From the IMG/VR virus record IMGVR_UViG_3300025137_005045: DNA of 64,000 bases. One strand, 5' to 3'. Made by a program: the position numbers and the translations under genes. The first letter of the stretch is position 1. Every line of letters begins with the position of its first letter. Under the pieces are notes generated by a model that was given only the letters and a program-made list of their open reading frames with translations, had not been told where the DNA came from and ran no database searches. The DNA is from a virus. Lineage: Duplodnaviria > Caudoviricetes. Positions 3,407 to 57,885 of the stretch are shown here, piece by piece.

Positions 3407-4974
3407 TGGCTAGCAAATCACTAGACGGCGTTCTTATTAAGAAAGCCCATAAAAAGTCCACATACACTCAAAAACAAGTAAATGAATTTGCACAATGTGC
3501 AGACCCTACCAACGGGGCCAAATACTTTATGCAAAATTTCTTTCACATACAGCATCCTACACGAGGAGGTATCAAATACGAACCATTTGAATATCAAAGT
3601 CGTTTGATAGATGTATATCATAACTATCGTTATTCAATATCAATGATGCCTAGACAAACAGGTAAGTCGACATCAGCCGCAGGATACTTGTTATGGTATG
3701 CCATGTTTGTACCAGATGCAACAATACTAGTCGCCGCACACAAATATGCAGGTGCACAAGAAATCATGCAACGTGTTAGATATGCCTACGAAGCATGCCC
3801 GGATCATATCAGAGCAGGTGCTGTTAGTTATAATAAAGGTAGTATAGAATTTGATAATGGCAGTCGTATAGTGGCACAAACAACAACTGAAAATACTGGT
3901 CGAGGTATGAGTATATCAATGCTGTACTGTGATGAGTTTGCTTTTGTCAGACCTACCATTGCTCGTGAATTTTGGACTTCAATATCTCCTACTCTGGCAA
4001 CTGGCGGTAAAGCAATTATTACATCAACACCTAACTCAGATGAAGATCAATTTGCATTACTATGGAAAGGCGCCAACAAAACAGAGGATACGCACGGTAA
4101 CGAAACAAAACTAGGAGTCAACGGATTTAAACCATTTCGTTCATATTGGAAAGAACACCCCGATAGAGATGATGAATGGGCAGATGAAGAACGTGCTAAA
4201 CTAGGTGAAGAACGTTTTAGACGTGAGATGGATTGTGAATTCATCATCAATGATGAAACACTGATTGCTCCAATACATCTAATGTCATTGGAAGGTGAAG
4301 AACCCTCAGAAAAAACTGGACAAGTACGCTGGTTTGGAACAATACAACCTGATCATTTATATGTGGTAAGTTGGGATCCAAGTTTGGGAACAGGTGGCGA
4401 TTATGCGGCCATGCAAGTATTTGACGCAACAACATTTACACAGGTAGCAGAATGGAAACATAATAAAACAACAATACCTGAACAGGTTAGAATATTTGCT
4501 GACATGATTAAGGTATTAGAAAGTCGTGTAGGTGAACAAAATAATATCTATTACTCAGTGGAAAACAATACCATAGGAGAAGCCGCTTTAATATCTATAG
4601 CAGACTATGGAGAAGATAACATTAAAGGTGTGTTTCTAAGCGAAGATAAAAAAGCTGGTGCAGGCAGACGTTATCGTAAAGGATTTAATACAACAAATAA
4701 AAGCAAATTATCAGCATGTAGTAAATTTAAAACCCTATTGGAGCAAGGTAGATTAAAAGTTAAATCTAGACCTTTAATTAGTGAACTTAAAAACTTTGTA
4801 GCACATGGTACTAGCTATGCGGCCAAACCTGGAGAGCATGACGATCTGGTTATGGCAACAGTGTTAGCAGTCAGGATGTTACAACAGATACAGAATTATC
4901 ATAAGAGTATCGGAGAGTCAATGACAGATCATAGCGATAGCAAAATTGACCCGATGCCGTTTATAATGTTTTAA
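3406..4974 (+). CDS. terL: terminase large subunit (T4 gp17-like)
   Basis: PRQTGKST Walker A, LYCDEFAF Walker B, nuclease motifs WDPSLGTGGDY and HDDLVMA. Confidence 0.95.
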   Translation: MASKSLDGVLIKKAHKKSTYTQKQVNEFAQCADPTNGAKYFMQNFFHIQHPTRGGIKYEPFEYQSRLIDVYHNYRYSISMMPRQTGKSTSAAGYLLWYAMFVPDATILVAAHKYAGAQEIMQRVRYAYEACPDHIRAGAVSYNKGSIEFDNGSRIVAQTTTENTGRGMSISMLYCDEFAFVRPTIAREFWTSISPTLATGGKAIITSTPNSDEDQFALLWKGANKTEDTHGNETKLGVNGFKPFRSYWKEHPDRDDEWADEERAKLGEERFRREMDCEFIINDETLIAPIHLMSLEGEEPSEKTGQVRWFGTIQPDHLYVVSWDPSLGTGGDYAAMQVFDATTFTQVAEWKHNKTTIPEQVRIFADMIKVLESRVGEQNNIYYSVENNTIGEAALISIADYGEDNIKGVFLSEDKKAGAGRRYRKGFNTTNKSKLSACSKFKTLLEQGRLKVKSRPLISELKNFVAHGTSYAAKPGEHDDLVMATVLAVRMLQQIQNYHKSIGESMTDHSDSKIDPMPFIMF

Positions 4975-4987
4975 GATAAATACTGAC

Positions 4988-6697
4988 ATGATATCCACAG
5001 AAAACATTAATCAAAATTTATTTGATCTTTTAACTACTAAGAACTTTGAACTAGTAACCAGAGACAATAAAGGAAAAGAAACTGCTGAACCTAAAAAAGC
5101 AGAATTGTTTAGCTTTGACTATACTGCTGATGATAATAACTATGGTACTGTTGTAGTTACTATTACCGGTGATGGTAACCTAGAAGTATTTTACGGTGAC
5201 ACACTTGGTAAAGGAATGGACCTAGATCATAAAGCAGAATGGTACGACTTTCTTTATCAACTAAGACATTTTGCTAGACGTAACATGTTAGGATTTGATT
5301 TAAAAAATATGAATAAACTAAAATATGCAATGCAGTCAAGAAGCCAGGTAGAAGAATCTAAATACTACGGTTACAAGAATACAAGTTATACCAAACCTAC
5401 TAAAGAAGCAAAACTTAAAATAGTACACTCAAAACCAATTGATGAAGAGGCAGGAGATCAACGTTATAGAAATATAAAAGCTCTATATGTTGAAAATTCA
5501 GATGGTGAACGTTTTAAACTACCTTTCACTAAATTGTTTGCTGGTCGTGCAATGGCAAGACACGTAAGCGAAGGTGGGTCACCACATGATCACTTTGGCC
5601 AATATATTTGTGAATTAGTATCAGATATAGGAGTGCTAGCTAATTTTGTGAGAGCAAGTAGAGGTAAAGAATTTACAGATGCAGGTACAAGCGTTATGGC
5701 AGAGGCCGGTGTTAGACACTATGCTGATCTTAAAAAGAAAGTAAAAAGAATGATAGGTCGTAGAGGATACAAAGAACAGTTTAACGCATTTGACCCAGAA
5801 CAAACACAGGAGCATGTTGAAATCACAGATCAAATACGTGACATGTTTACAGAAACATTACTAGATACCAGAATTGAACAAGCTATTCCGGTACTAAACA
5901 AACTCGAATCAAGGAACTCAGTTATGAAAGAAATTAGCGAATTTAACAATTGGGCAGAGGATATTACTGCACTTGAAGGTTTTGATCCTGATGAATTTGA
6001 CGGTGAAATTAAAATACCAGCAGTAAACCAATTAAGAGGAGAAAGACCAACAACAATTAAATATACTGCTGAAGTAGATAAAGAACAAAACACAGTGCGT
6101 GTAACTAAATGCTCAGACGAAAAGTATAGAGATGAATGCCAAGCAGATGCTGAAGCAGAGTGGGACGCAAGAGATGTTGATATACCAATGGAAGACGCTG
6201 ATCTAGAAGAAGGCAAAATGAAAGACTTACACTATGACTTACAACATTCCTCAGACGAAGAATTTGAAAAGAAATATAAAATGAAAAAATCAGATTGGGA
6301 AGAAGTTAAAACACCAGGACTAGCAATGGATCCAAATAAACCAGCATACATTAGTAAAATGAAAATGGAAGACGAACCAACAGAGGATAAGGACATGGAA
6401 GTATATGAAGGGCCTACAAGAAAAGACTTTCAAATGGTAGCAGACTTGCTTAAAGCAAATCCAGATCAAGATAAGAGAAAAGAATTAGCTAATCATCATG
6501 CTGATATGTTTGCTAAACAAAACCCACGCTTTGATAAAAAAAGATTTCTTAAAGCGGCTGGTATTGATGAAGGCAATGAATTTACTAAAAAATTAGCACA
6601 AGCAAAAGCCTCAGGCGAAGCAGAGTTTGAAGTAAATGGTAAAAAATATGAAGTACGAGAAGATGAATTAAAAGCAATACTTAGGTTGGCTAGATAG
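4988..6697 (+). CDS. putative head core/scaffold-like modular protein
   Basis: Late box 5 nt upstream; follows terL; acidic C-half of short modules bounded by hydrophobic-X-E sites. Confidence 0.55.
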   Translation: MISTENINQNLFDLLTTKNFELVTRDNKGKETAEPKKAELFSFDYTADDNNYGTVVVTITGDGNLEVFYGDTLGKGMDLDHKAEWYDFLYQLRHFARRNMLGFDLKNMNKLKYAMQSRSQVEESKYYGYKNTSYTKPTKEAKLKIVHSKPIDEEAGDQRYRNIKALYVENSDGERFKLPFTKLFAGRAMARHVSEGGSPHDHFGQYICELVSDIGVLANFVRASRGKEFTDAGTSVMAEAGVRHYADLKKKVKRMIGRRGYKEQFNAFDPEQTQEHVEITDQIRDMFTETLLDTRIEQAIPVLNKLESRNSVMKEISEFNNWAEDITALEGFDPDEFDGEIKIPAVNQLRGERPTTIKYTAEVDKEQNTVRVTKCSDEKYRDECQADAEAEWDARDVDIPMEDADLEEGKMKDLHYDLQHSSDEEFEKKYKMKKSDWEEVKTPGLAMDPNKPAYISKMKMEDEPTEDKDMEVYEGPTRKDFQMVADLLKANPDQDKRKELANHHADMFAKQNPRFDKKRFLKAAGIDEGNEFTKKLAQAKASGEAEFEVNGKKYEVREDELKAILRLAR

Positions 6698-53840: not shown

Positions 53841-55157
53841 ATGAAACCTTGGGAAATAATAAAACTGCTTGAAGCAGACAACAGTAGATTAGCGAAAGAG
53901 AAAATACTTCGTGACGAAGCTGGATGTGCAAATTCAGAATTCTTTTTAGGCGTCCAACTAGCCCTCGATCCACTAATTACATTTGGTGTCAAGAAGGTAG
54001 CAGAACAAAAAGGTCCTGGTGGACCTGGGCTAGAGTGGACCATATTTAAACAGGCAGTGAATGGCTTATGTTCTAGAGAAGTTACAGGCAATGCCGCACA
54101 AGAAGTTTTGCAGGCCCTCATGGAGACCTCTACTGCTGAGCAGTGGAACCTGTGGTATCGACGTATCCTTATTAAGGACTTACGTTGTGGCGTTAGTGAA
54201 AAGACTGTGAATAATGTAGTCAAGAAAGATTACCCCAACTATATTATTCCAGTCTTCACTTGCCAATTAGCACACGATGGTGCTAATCATGAGAAGAAAG
54301 TTGCAGGTAAAAAACAATTAGAAGTTAAACTTGATGGCGTTAGAGTTATTGCTATTTTACATAAGGATAAGCGTCCAGAAGTATTCAGCCGTAATGGTAA
54401 ACAGTTTCATAATTTTGAACACATTGTTGATCAATTAGCACATGTTGTTCAGACTTATGGCATCGGAACAGACATGATATTAGATGGTGAAGTTATGAGC
54501 AGTTCATTTCAGGACTTGATGAAACAAGTCCACCGTAAAACTAATATCCAATCTGACGATGCTACACTACATTGTTTTGATATGATCACTCTTGAAGAGT
54601 TTTTAGGTGGTGGAAGTATTGTTCCACAGTATGTTAGATCAGGACTGGTCAAGGAGTTTGTTAGCAAGCATCAAGAGGAATTACCTAACGTAGCAGTATT
54701 AGATTGGATTGATGTTGACTTGGATACCTCCGAAGGACAAGAGTCGCTTAAACAGGTCAACAAGCAGGCTATAGACGGTGGTTACGAAGGAATAATGATC
54801 AAAGATCCTAAAGCAGGATATGAATGTAAACGTAGTCATAGTTGGTTAAAAATGAAACCGTTCATTGAAGTTACATTGGAAGTAATGGATGTAGAAGAGG
54901 GGACTGGCCGTAATGCTGGTCGATTAGGTGCACTTATTTGTGAAGGAGAGGATGATGGACTTACTATTAGGGTTAATTGCGGTAGTGGCTTTACTGATAT
55001 CGATCGCGATAGTTTTTGGAATAATAGGACAAAGCTCAATGGAAGACTTGTGGAAGTCAGAGCAGACGCAATCACGCAAAACCAAGACAAAACGTACTCG
55101 TTAAGATTTCCTAGATTCAAAGGATTTCGTGGTATGGAACCAGGAGAGAAATTATGA
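53841..55157 (+). CDS. ATP-dependent DNA ligase
   Basis: KLDGVR, LDGEV, EGIMIK, WLKMK, SLRFPRF; start ATG 53841. Confidence 0.95.
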   Translation: MKPWEIIKLLEADNSRLAKEKILRDEAGCANSEFFLGVQLALDPLITFGVKKVAEQKGPGGPGLEWTIFKQAVNGLCSREVTGNAAQEVLQALMETSTAEQWNLWYRRILIKDLRCGVSEKTVNNVVKKDYPNYIIPVFTCQLAHDGANHEKKVAGKKQLEVKLDGVRVIAILHKDKRPEVFSRNGKQFHNFEHIVDQLAHVVQTYGIGTDMILDGEVMSSSFQDLMKQVHRKTNIQSDDATLHCFDMITLEEFLGGGSIVPQYVRSGLVKEFVSKHQEELPNVAVLDWIDVDLDTSEGQESLKQVNKQAIDGGYEGIMIKDPKAGYECKRSHSWLKMKPFIEVTLEVMDVEEGTGRNAGRLGALICEGEDDGLTIRVNCGSGFTDIDRDSFWNNRTKLNGRLVEVRADAITQNQDKTYSLRFPRFKGFRGMEPGEKL

Positions 55158-55369
55158 TACAAGACTTTTTGCTATTTCTAATTGAAAAAGGTACTATGGC
55201 AGAAATGCCATGGTATGTTGATCCTGCAATCATAGTACTATTTCTTATCAGTAATATACTAATGTTTATTCCTAGTTTGAATTATCCTGTGATAAATGAA
55301 ACAGGAGAGGAATGGTATGATAGGTTGGAAAAACAAAGAGATCAACAAAAATGGTTGAGTTTATCGTGA
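55154..55369 (+). CDS. small membrane protein
   Basis: One hydrophobic helix. Confidence 0.55.
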   Translation: MIQDFLLFLIEKGTMAEMPWYVDPAIIVLFLISNILMFIPSLNYPVINETGEEWYDRLEKQRDQQKWLSLS

Positions 55370-55512
55370 GTATACCACAAAAACCTAAACCTTGGCGTCA
55401 GCGAGTGCGTGATTTATTTGAAAAGAACTTACCGTTTGGACACAAAGTAGAACAGGATAAAACTAAAATAATTGACCGTAAACGTAAATATAAAAAGGAC
55501 ATTGACCATTAA
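55351..55512 (+). CDS. 53-aa basic protein, ArfA-like (missed by the ORF track)
   Basis: MVEFIVSIPQKPKPWRQRVRDLFEKNLPFGHKVEQDKTKIIDRKRKYKKDIDH; fills the gap exactly, ends TAA-ATG. Confidence 0.5.
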   Translation: MVEFIVSIPQKPKPWRQRVRDLFEKNLPFGHKVEQDKTKIIDRKRKYKKDIDH

Positions 55513-55530
55513 ATGGATAACGTGTATAAT
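55502..55530 (+). promoter_or_regulatory. sigma70 promoter straddling a gene junction
   Basis: TTGACC-N17-TATAAT. Confidence 0.7.
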
Positions 55531-55842
55531 TGTTCAGTATGTAGCACAGATTTTGATGAATATTCAGAAGGTGGTATAGTAGGTAACTTTGGTATGTTAC
55601 CGGTAGCATTATGTCCAACATGTTTATCTTGTATGTGTGACATGGCAGATCAAATGAGGGAGGATGATGATATGGAAGTAGCACAAGCAGTGGAACAGAT
55701 GTATTCAATAGCAAGAGCAGTTGAAAAAACCGGCGATGGTTATCTGGCAGGAGATATAAAAGAAGTAGCTGATCGCCTTAATAAGAAAACTGGACCCATA
55801 TTAACGGATGATGATATGGACACTATTAAGAGGGCTACGTAA
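55513..55842 (+). CDS. Cys-rich hypothetical protein
   Basis: CSVC...CPTC. Confidence 0.7.
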   Translation: MDNVYNCSVCSTDFDEYSEGGIVGNFGMLPVALCPTCLSCMCDMADQMREDDDMEVAQAVEQMYSIARAVEKTGDGYLAGDIKEVADRLNKKTGPILTDDDMDTIKRAT

Positions 55843-56027
55843 TGTTAACTAAAACTTATGATGTAGTATACTGGGACGAAGGCGGTAAGAAAGAAATTGT
55901 CAATAGTTTTCCTACTCTAGAAGAAGCACAACAGGTATTTTTTAAATGTATGGAAGGCGATAAAGAAGCACAGATCAATGCCAGCTATGACATTGAAGAA
56001 AGCTATGTAGGAGTTCCAGGTTATTAA
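55842..56027 (+). CDS. small hypothetical protein
   Basis: Coupled 61 aa ORF. Confidence 0.6.
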   Translation: MLTKTYDVVYWDEGGKKEIVNSFPTLEEAQQVFFKCMEGDKEAQINASYDIEESYVGVPGY

Positions 56028-56640
56028 TCCTAAAACAATAAACATTGCTAATAGAGATACAGCTACCACACTAACTAATATTTGTAAACTACTCAGAGAC
56101 GCATATAGTCGCAACTGGATAACCAGTCGTGATGGTAACATTAGTTGGCACCCTGAAGATGCTAGTTACTTTTATATTACACCAAGTGGTGTGCGTAAAC
56201 AGGATATGACTCCTGAACTGTTTAAAAAGATTGATATTGATACACTAGAAGAGCTGGATGATAATTTAAATTTTCGCCCAAGCGGAGAAATACATCTACA
56301 TCATAGATTGATTAAACAAACACACCAGGAACAATGCGTAGTTCATCTGCACCCTACTTATATTGTTGCGGCAATGCAGACAATGGAGTTATCTAAATTA
56401 GTCAATGACTATCCTGAGATTAGCAGATATACTCGTGTTGCTGACAATGTAGGCATGGTACCACCTATCAGTGAAGAACTAGCAGAACAATGTATATTAA
56501 AATTAGGCGAAGACAAAGACATTGTTGGTATCAAAGCACACGGTGCTGTCAGTAGAGGAAACACTTTATATGATGCTTATGAACACACAGAGCGTCTTGA
56601 ACATATTTGTAAAATTGTATTGGTAGGGAGAACTGTATGA
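56023..56640 (+). CDS. class II aldolase/adducin-family protein; start uncertain (non-AUG)
   Basis: In-frame upstream ICKLLRDAYSRNWITSRDGNIS...YITPSG precedes the GTG at 56191; EIHLH, VHLHP, HGA metal ligands. Confidence 0.8.
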   Translation: MNPKTINIANRDTATTLTNICKLLRDAYSRNWITSRDGNISWHPEDASYFYITPSGVRKQDMTPELFKKIDIDTLEELDDNLNFRPSGEIHLHHRLIKQTHQEQCVVHLHPTYIVAAMQTMELSKLVNDYPEISRYTRVADNVGMVPPISEELAEQCILKLGEDKDIVGIKAHGAVSRGNTLYDAYEHTERLEHICKIVLVGRTV

Positions 56641-57065
56641 GTATGCACATGGAAGGTCCTGCATTAACTACAACAAGGACTAAAAAATATAAACTTACTA
56701 AAGTTAGACGAGCTCAGTTAAAAGAAGATATGTTTCACTATAACAAGAAACGTAAACGTAACGGTGAAGTTAAAATTACATTCGACGAATACTTAGATTA
56801 TCGTTGTGGTATTGTTACAAAAAGAAAACTGCACCCCAGTGAACAGGGCGAGCTTAGAGCTGATTATTTACAACTACCGCCACATAGACAAAATGAAGTT
56901 AAACACCCTAGCAAGCCAATGGGTGATGGCATAGCTACTAAAAAAGATTCAACACAATATACAGGCACATTAATTAAAGGTATCGCTACAATGCACAAGT
57001 CAAATGCTATTCCTATAATTGATGAAAAACAAGCAAAAGAAGTTTCGTCGATGAGGAGAGGTTAA
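56637..57065 (+). CDS. hypothetical protein of T4-like phages
   Basis: YTG..IKGIATMHKSNA.P C-terminal motif. Confidence 0.75.
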   Translation: MSMHMEGPALTTTRTKKYKLTKVRRAQLKEDMFHYNKKRKRNGEVKITFDEYLDYRCGIVTKRKLHPSEQGELRADYLQLPPHRQNEVKHPSKPMGDGIATKKDSTQYTGTLIKGIATMHKSNAIPIIDEKQAKEVSSMRRG

Positions 57066-57067
57066 CA

Positions 57068-57289
57068 ATGAGTGATATAAAGGTACACTGTACAGACAAA
57101 GGAATGGATGTTGATGGATTTATTTTAAATCATAGACATAAAATGTTTATGGATGTTGCTATTAATACTGTTAAAGTTAAATTTCAGTATGATCCTAAAT
57201 TTAAACAGTATGTTGGTAATATGGCTGGTCTTGAATGGATAGTCAAAGAAGCAGACTTACCGGACGAGTATGACGAATATAAAAGGTAG
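57068..57289 (+). CDS. hypothetical protein
   Basis: 73 aa ORF. Confidence 0.7.
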   Translation: MSDIKVHCTDKGMDVDGFILNHRHKMFMDVAINTVKVKFQYDPKFKQYVGNMAGLEWIVKEADLPDEYDEYKR

Positions 57290-57584
57290 TGTTATTATTA
57301 TTGCATTTTTCTTTCTGCAAGGTTGTACAACCGCAGTAGTTAAATTTCTAGGAATTGGTGGTGCTGTTGAAGGAGCCGCCGGTGCAACTGTTGCAGTTGA
57401 AATAGCAGAAACATTAGACCAAGCAAAAACTATAGGTGATGCAATAAGTTGGGGAAATACAGGAAAAACACTAACGGATCATGCTATCAGTAAGTATACC
57501 GGTAAAGACTGTAGAACATTTAACATACTGAAAGAAAAAGAAATATGTGAGGAAGTAAACAAGGACCAAGATAAAGGAAAATAA
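57270..57584 (+). CDS. putative lipoprotein
   Basis: Hydrophobic N-terminus and lipobox LQGC. Confidence 0.6.
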   Translation: MTNIKGSVIIIAFFFLQGCTTAVVKFLGIGGAVEGAAGATVAVEIAETLDQAKTIGDAISWGNTGKTLTDHAISKYTGKDCRTFNILKEKEICEEVNKDQDKGK

Positions 57585-57585
57585 T

Positions 57586-57885
57586 ATGGGTGAATGGAAA
57601 ACAGATATTAAAGGAGAAGAAATCAATGTCGACGAGATGGCACTTGCTAAAATGCTATATGGTGCGTTGAAAGAGTCTCTTAAAGACAGTGACTTATATT
57701 ACAAAGGAATAAGTCCTGAATACTATTATCTTACAGATAAAGGTAAGGATACATTGATTGCATTTGTTGAACAGATGTCACCTTTGATATTAAAAGCAGA
57801 TGAAGACCATATACGCCAGAGGGCCAAAACAATGACTTTTGACAAACTTTCCAAAGAATCAGATCTTCCACACATTCCCAAATGA
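57586..57885 (+). CDS. hypothetical protein
   Basis: 99 aa ORF. Confidence 0.7.
   Translation: MGEWKTDIKGEEINVDEMALAKMLYGALKESLKDSDLYYKGISPEYYYLTDKGKDTLIAFVEQMSPLILKADEDHIRQRAKTMTFDKLSKESDLPHIPK

Follow-up and report, generated by a model that had tools for sequence, protein, structure and literature searches.

The plus-strand gene at 55366..55512 of the window, by which the whole analysed stretch of 64,000 nucleotides from the virus record IMGVR_UViG_3300025137_005045 (Duplodnaviria; Caudoviricetes) is meant, is almost certainly a real, conserved protein-coding gene, and the small basic peptide predicted from it quite probably belongs to a DUF7230-like branch of the ArfA superfamily. The preferred reading of its function, to which a probability of roughly 0.55 was assigned, is that of a constitutive, tmRNA-independent, RF2-dependent ribosome-rescue peptide of the ArfA type, the role being deduced from sequence comparisons.

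The source phage and the peptide locus

The source of the DNA is a large uncultured marine myophage with nearly all of its genes on the plus strand. The window has a GC content of 35.7% and carries a T4-type large terminase, helicases and ribonucleotide reductase, and an ATP-dependent DNA ligase gene is located just upstream of the peptide locus. The closest terminases are those of PA5oct-like jumbo phages (55% identity). A close relative of the phage was absent among 50,697 phage records, and the megablast search of phage genomes with the 5-kb region produced no match; relatives of the peptide locus were of marine metagenomic origin, and one was carried by a contig of 153 kb. Within the window, the peptide gene is the sole match to the family HMM (68 bits), and no second copy of this gene, no canonical ArfA, no tRNA and no tmRNA were found.

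Gene boundaries, start codon and conservation

An open frame is present on the plus strand from ATG 55351 to the TAA at 55510–55512, and the 53-residue translation reported in the preliminary description was reproduced from it. Nevertheless, judging from the starts of homologous loci, a 48-residue product translated from GTG 55366 is more likely than the 53-residue one. The most likely coding sequence, called from the starts in homologous loci and from purifying selection, covers 55366..55512 on the plus strand (GTG start, 48 codons, TAA stop as codon 49). Translation was placed, with the qualification that it probably starts there, at GTG 55366 because homologues begin with ATG exactly at this codon in seven loci having another upstream gene (the equivalent codon is also ATG in L012), the GTG shares nucleotides with the TGA that ends the upstream frame (GTGA), an SD-like GGTTGAG lies 7–8 nt 5′ of it (GGTGGAG in L002 and L003), and the five extra N-terminal residues encoded from ATG 55351 occur only in loci with the same overlapping upstream gene and are missing where the upstream gene differs. 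The in-frame upstream ATG and the four codons that follow it (55351..55365, plus strand), which lie within the 3′ end of the upstream frame, are therefore more likely to represent the ribosome-binding region (GGTTGAG) of the GTG start than coding sequence. The resulting 48-residue peptide is strongly basic, with a pI of about 10.2, 15 K+R and 7 D+E.

The upstream frame is a 71-aa hydrophobic small ORF (55154..55369, plus strand), whose TGA forms the overlap mentioned above and whose place is taken by other genes in related phages: in L001 and its kin a 95-aa CxxC/H-rich ORF is located there, and further loci have further genes. The 95-aa ORF of L001 (4711–4998), with its CxxC and H-rich motifs, may be a candidate HNH-type nuclease. 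Downstream, the TAA of the peptide gene directly abuts ATG 55513 of the gene for a 109-aa CxxC...CxxC protein (55513..55842, plus strand), for which no family match was obtained; most close relatives retain this TAA–ATG junction, L003 being an exception. So, the earlier statement that the frame fills the gap between its neighbours exactly is valid at the 3′ end, but not at the 5′ end, where the frame opened by ATG 55351 overlaps the 71-aa ORF by 19 nt.

Several additional features were observed around this junction. A near-consensus sigma-70-like site (TTGACC-17-TATAAT, 11/12) at 55502–55530 on the plus strand covers both the 3′ terminus of the peptide gene and the initial codons of its downstream neighbour; a transcript from it would begin inside that neighbour, and the number of such sites in the region is about that in its shuffles. 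In L001, the counterpart of the 109-aa CxxC protein (5151–5486 there) is split into two ORFs of 56 and 54 aa, after which an extra 186-aa gene is inserted. Further downstream, at 56191–56640 of the window, a class II aldolase/adducin-domain protein is encoded (Pfam 72 bits), with the profile matched only from position 40 in the version translated from the first GTG.

The peptide gene was recognized in 12 related loci (one from IMG/VR and eleven from metagenomes), and six protein homologues of the window peptide showed 73–96% identity to it. Codon-wise comparison of nine loci gave pairwise dN/dS values of 0.06–0.5, with synonymous sites near saturation. These data bear out the earlier view that the ORF is genuine. 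It could be supposed that the frame has no functional product, being either an ORF due to chance or a spacer whose translation links the CxxC gene to the membrane ORF upstream, and the tight coupling at both ends (the GTGA overlap and the TAA–ATG abutment) would fit such an arrangement. This explanation is barely plausible, since purifying selection acts on the amino-acid sequence, the gene sequence is kept beside different upstream genes and once beside a different downstream gene, the family is found in many unrelated contexts, and related phages have the gene either whole or deleted along with its neighbours.

The last point is illustrated by L010–L012, which retain only the first ten codons of the peptide gene. 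A deletion of ~2.2 kb (at about 4016–4090 in these loci, corresponding to window 55395–57590) begins after peptide codon 10, takes the CxxC gene, a 61-aa gene, the class II aldolase-like gene and more, and leaves a stump fused to the homologue of the window gene 57586–57885. This marks the peptide gene as an accessory one that disappears together with its neighbours as a block. The 24-residue “short variant” seen in L010–L012 was considered as a functional form and was rejected, being the stump of this deletion.

The peptide family and its overlap with DUF7230

When the profile of the window clade was compared with 1.84 billion representatives, 20 further short proteins (43–83 aa) were found at E ≤ 1e-3, and the widened family profile collected at least 130 short proteins, with 92 confirmed IMG/VR stretches; scanning of GTDB species genomes with the family pattern revealed no bacterial copies. 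According to these sequence searches, the family is large, almost wholly phage-borne and overlaps Pfam DUF7230. Its plan consists, in the N-terminal half, of a basic N-terminus and a helix ending in L-F, followed by D-x-P-[FY]-G-H-[KR]-V-[EQ], and, in the C-terminal half, of x-D-[KR]-T-K and then R-K-x-K-[HY]-K. Across 50 viral loci, the recurrent neighbours of family members are miscellaneous accessory genes, encoding radical SAM, ferredoxin, class-3 lipase, GNAT and GGACT proteins, and no translation or RNA-repair neighbours were found there.

The DUF7230 profile (PF23876, gathering score 27 bits) is matched on the tail by half of the family members tested (13/26). There is no match for the window peptide itself; its close relatives L001 and L008 score 25.5 bits, below the cut-off, and the more distant P0131 and P0235 score above it (28.9 and 30.3 bits, respectively). 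PF23876 is also present in the precomputed annotation of several family matches. Canonical DUF7230 is represented by the 42-aa peptides L183 and L184, of which L183 matches the profile over its full length with 63.4 bits. In hhalign, L183 was aligned with A5, the profile of 78 family sequences, with a probability of 95.9% (E 5e-9), the alignment being confined to the 22-residue tail; compared with ArfA, L183/L184 gave 29% over the whole length. Canonical DUF7230 members share with the family the tail V-E-R-D-K-T-K-Y followed by R-K-x-K-H-K, whereas they are devoid of the L-F...P-F-G-H block of the window family and have instead the N-terminus K-N-P-V...L, resembling that of alphaproteobacterial-phage ArfAs (Roseobacter phage CRP-212). 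The literature searched contained no mention of DUF7230, nor of a link between DUF7230 and ArfA.

Relationship to ArfA

ArfA (YhdL) is known in E. coli and other beta- and gammaproteobacteria, corresponds to the Pfam family PF03889 and is represented by the PDB structures 5MDV, 5U4I, 5H5U and 5MGP. The preliminary description had likened the window peptide to ArfA by eye and proposed an HMM search against PF03889 as a check. This check failed for the peptide alone: neither the 53-aa nor the 48-aa form matched Pfam ArfA at E ≤ 10 (gathering score 25.5 bits; E. coli ArfA from NC_000913.3, used as a positive control, 89.5 bits). BLASTP of the window peptide against E. coli ArfA gave no match, and the ArfA HMM gave it −0.9 bits, a score not above that of its shuffled versions (p 0.74). 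The alignment of the window clade with 20 enteric ArfAs in hhalign had a probability of 0.9%; note that the bacterial ArfAs gathered from genomes were from Enterobacteriaceae only. The window-clade profile gave only chance-level matches in the PDB (Atu0228, Brat), the Foldseek search of the PDB with the AF2 model gave none, and PHROGs yielded only weak matches, to families without an assigned function. No match was obtained either when the window peptide or the family member P0183 was used in tblastn against phages, these queries being probably masked by the low-complexity filter.

At the level of the family, however, the likeness to ArfA was retained. In the ranking of 177,635 distinct PDB sequences by the A5 profile, the top matches were the ArfA chains 5u4i_w, 5mdv_6 and 5h5u_3, with the ribosomal proteins and all other basic proteins ranked below them, at an E-value of 0.23 that is not significant alone. 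The hhalign probability of the family against enteric ArfA climbed with the addition of family diversity from 0.9% to 7.4% and then to 25.7%, and A5 against a more mixed ArfA set gave 16%. The family HMM scored enteric ArfAs at 6–15.6 bits compared with 0.3 ± 1.6 bits for shuffles (300 of each), and for most of them the real score lay above all 300 shuffles; likewise, of the six divergent phage ArfAs, three exceeded their own shuffles. In the opposite direction, the best family members reached only E 0.14–0.23 with Pfam ArfA. Taken directly, then, the statistics linking the family to ArfA by sequence are marginal (E 0.23; hhalign 16–26%).

The bridge between the two groups came from isolated phages, in which tblastn with E. 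coli ArfA revealed ArfA-like ORFs, seven of them passing PF03889. One of these, the 51-aa protein ATN93434.1 of Pseudoalteromonas phage J2-1, passes both ArfA (41.3 bits, positions 2–44 of 44) and DUF7230 (28.6 bits): it combines an ArfA-typical N-terminal half with exactly the tail of the window family, without KGKGS. In hhalign, it was aligned equally well with the family profile (95.9%, E 6.5e-9) and with the ArfA profile (95.7%, E 8.8e-9). The intermediates as a group carry three kinds of N-terminus. Weaker leads in the same direction were provided by the family member P0241, named ArfA by JGI (Pfam ArfA E 0.23), and by the ESM Atlas, where the nearest neighbours include DUF7230 and ArfA clusters.

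It should be taken into account that the strongest of these links pass through the charged, low-complexity tail of ~20 residues, which may have been exchanged among genes or have arisen by convergence. In that event, the window peptide might be a small basic peptide of unrelated origin that binds nucleic acid or acts in regulation and resembles ArfA by convergence or by the shared charged tail, and DUF7230 would have a different role. The missing direct profile match for the window peptide, the marginal family-level E-values, the very basic composition (pI 10.2) and the Foldseek search without a structural match would all be expected in this case. Such an explanation is nevertheless considered unlikely, because the family-to-ArfA score cannot be put down to composition, as the shuffle control showed, ArfA ranked first among all the PDB sequences compared, the intermediates have the three kinds of N-terminus, and every method gave the same register, in which non-basic positions (L-F, the aromatic residue and V-E) are included.

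Residue and structure mapping on ArfA

The AF2 model of the peptide, moderately confident with a mean pLDDT of 70.8, consists of a helix at residues 10–19, a coil at 20–32 and a helix at 33–47. Three segments could be placed on ArfA. Codons 10–19 (55393..55422, plus strand) encode the first predicted alpha-helix, which, in the model and in the alignments, ends in the nearly invariant L17-F18, aligned with ArfA L19-L20. Codons 24–29 (55435..55452, plus strand) encode F-G-H-K-V-E, where conservation within the family is highest; F24 and H26-K27-V28-E29 fall on ArfA F25 and Q27-E30 in HMMER, hhalign and MAFFT alike, and this is an alignment-based match to the RF2-docking positions of ArfA. Codons 32–43 (55459..55494, plus strand), identified from alignments and family conservation, encode the basic tail, in which R38 is invariant and R38, K39 and K41 are aligned with ArfA R41, K42 and K44; Y42 corresponds to H45, so that the tail ends in K-Y in the window clade and in K-H in most relatives and in ArfA. 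The register of F, VE and RK.K proposed by eye in the preliminary description is the same as that of HMMER and hhalign, although a gap of 2–3 residues is required at KGKGS. The loss of KGKGS noted there was also found: D-K-T-K occupies this place, with a 2–3-residue deletion.

These segments correspond to the parts of ArfA with known contacts in the ribosome. In ArfA, a short helix made up of residues 15–24 lies at the decoding centre, F25 is packed against strands beta4/beta5 of RF2, Q27-E30 make an added strand on RF2 domain II/IV, and the basic C-terminus with the KH motif occupies the mRNA entry channel (PMC8012679). Only 46–48 ArfA residues are ordered, and residues 1–14 become ordered only upon RF2 opening (PMC8012679). 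The window peptide has no counterpart of residues 1–14. Both this loss and the loss of KGKGS are also seen among phage ArfAs that still pass PF03889.

The absence of these two elements raises the question of whether the peptide could bind ribosomes without rescuing them. Its tail would then plug the mRNA channel, perhaps with RF2 docked but unactivated, and would compete with tmRNA-SmpB or host ArfA, with the result that nascent phage or host chains are not ssrA-tagged or that a rescue-dependent host response is blocked. The kept tail and strand positions, together with the missing residues 1–14 and KGKGS loop, would agree with this, as would the behaviour of the ArfA segment that is ordered only when RF2 opens and that of the A18T variant of ArfA, which binds and brings in RF2 but leaves it inactive (PMC8012679). 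ClpX-like matches in the window would also fit a manipulated tagging or proteolysis. On the other hand, the Pfam-passing short phage ArfAs of CRP-212, XM05 and RsoM2USA likewise do not have residues 1–14, so the loss of this segment is common within ArfA proper, and a block of rescue would also trap ribosomes that the phage needs. A non-rescuing binder of this kind is thus rated less likely still than an unrelated peptide. Its extension to much of the phage DUF7230-like family, with these peptides acting as vacant-channel competitors that exclude tmRNA-SmpB and host ArfA, would be a bolder proposal and is considered quite improbable; if true, it would mean that the phage controls the tagging and degradation of stalled chains, or disarms a non-stop or rescue-dependent host defence.

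Comparison with known rescue factors

Returning to the ribosome-rescue reading, the window peptide and ArfA are alike in being small and basic, in the aligned helix ending in two hydrophobic residues, in the aromatic residue at the F25 position, in x-[KR]-V-E at the Q27-E30 strand, in the basic tail R-K-x-K-[H/Y] and in an active length of about 48–55 aa, which for the window peptide is a predicted one. Unlike ArfA, the window peptide does not match PF03889, is 2–3 residues shorter at KGKGS, has KY for KH and has a proline- and lysine-rich N-terminus; its gene has its own stop and is devoid of the RNase III hairpin, the hydrophobic C-terminal extension and the trans-translation control.

Like the window gene, the ArfA homologues of isolated phages (J2-1, Citromicrobium phage RXM gp10, pf16, Arash, CRP-212, XM05 and RsoM2USA) are phage-borne, 40–60 aa long and end at their own stop. 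They differ from the window peptide in that all of them pass PF03889 and all but J2-1 keep K-G-K-G-S. BrfA and ArfT are regarded as having evolved independently. By description, BrfA of Bacillus and ArfT of Francisella, which depend on a release factor for rescue, work on the same principle, in that a very small basic peptide senses the mRNA channel and brings in a release factor; BrfA also has a KH motif (PMC8012679).

In the literature searched, phage ArfA was met only as annotation, and RXM gp10 is a phage ArfA by annotation alone (PMC8953757). Several Pfam-passing ArfAs of isolated phages turned out to be mis-annotated or unannotated, XM05 (L019) among them. Salmonella phage Arash gp99c (L020) is labelled ‘ribosomal protein L2’, the ORFs of pf16 (L017) and RsoM2USA (L021) lie opposite annotated hypothetical genes, and that of CRP-212 (L018) lies over the 3′ end of gp38 in another frame.

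Expression of the peptide and its proposed function

Expression of bacterial arfA depends on a hairpin that renders its mRNA non-stop (PMC8012679). In the peptide gene, the TAA is followed immediately by the next ATG, and the window peptide has no hydrophobic C-terminal extension. The possibility that the ORF contains a hairpin or terminator of the arfA type was considered and ruled out: the terminator scan found no terminator-like site on the plus strand of the peptide region, and the RNA of this region folds worse than its shuffles (z +2.2). With its own TAA and neither hairpin nor terminator, the gene would yield the peptide each time the operon is expressed, free of the tmRNA gating of bacterial arfA. 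The earlier proposal that the gene has its own stop and does not depend on tmRNA failure thus agrees with the present data.

According to the proposed mechanism, translation from GTG 55366 would be coupled to the upstream cistron and would yield the 48-residue basic peptide. Where a host ribosome has run to the 3′ end of a truncated message and stalled, the basic tail of the peptide (codons 32–43) would enter the mRNA entry channel left vacant, and the aromatic-x-H-K-V-E block (codons 24–29) would extend domain II/IV of host RF2 by one strand, in the manner of ArfA F25 and Q27-E30. RF2 would then hydrolyse the peptidyl-tRNA, and the ribosome would be recycled. A compatible RF2 in the host is an assumption of this scheme. 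The benefit for the phage, which we infer together with the ribosome binding and RF2 recruitment from the sequence likeness described above, may be that ribosomes are kept available while mRNAs are cut during infection. The action against defence RNases suggested in the preliminary description would likewise be a putative one.

If the ribosome-rescue reading is true, many marine and other phages would possess a reduced form of a bacterial rescue factor that is constantly switched on. The stalling of ribosomes on mRNAs that are cut or truncated, whether through host shut-off, through RNases of phage or host origin or through RNase-type defences, would then be a bottleneck met regularly during infection, and phages would solve it without the tmRNA tagging route. 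DUF7230 would at the same time gain a testable function. Moreover, the family would represent natural ArfA variants of 40–50 residues in which the KGKGS loop and the first 14 residues are missing, and such variants may be useful to define the minimal needs for RF2 recruitment and activation.
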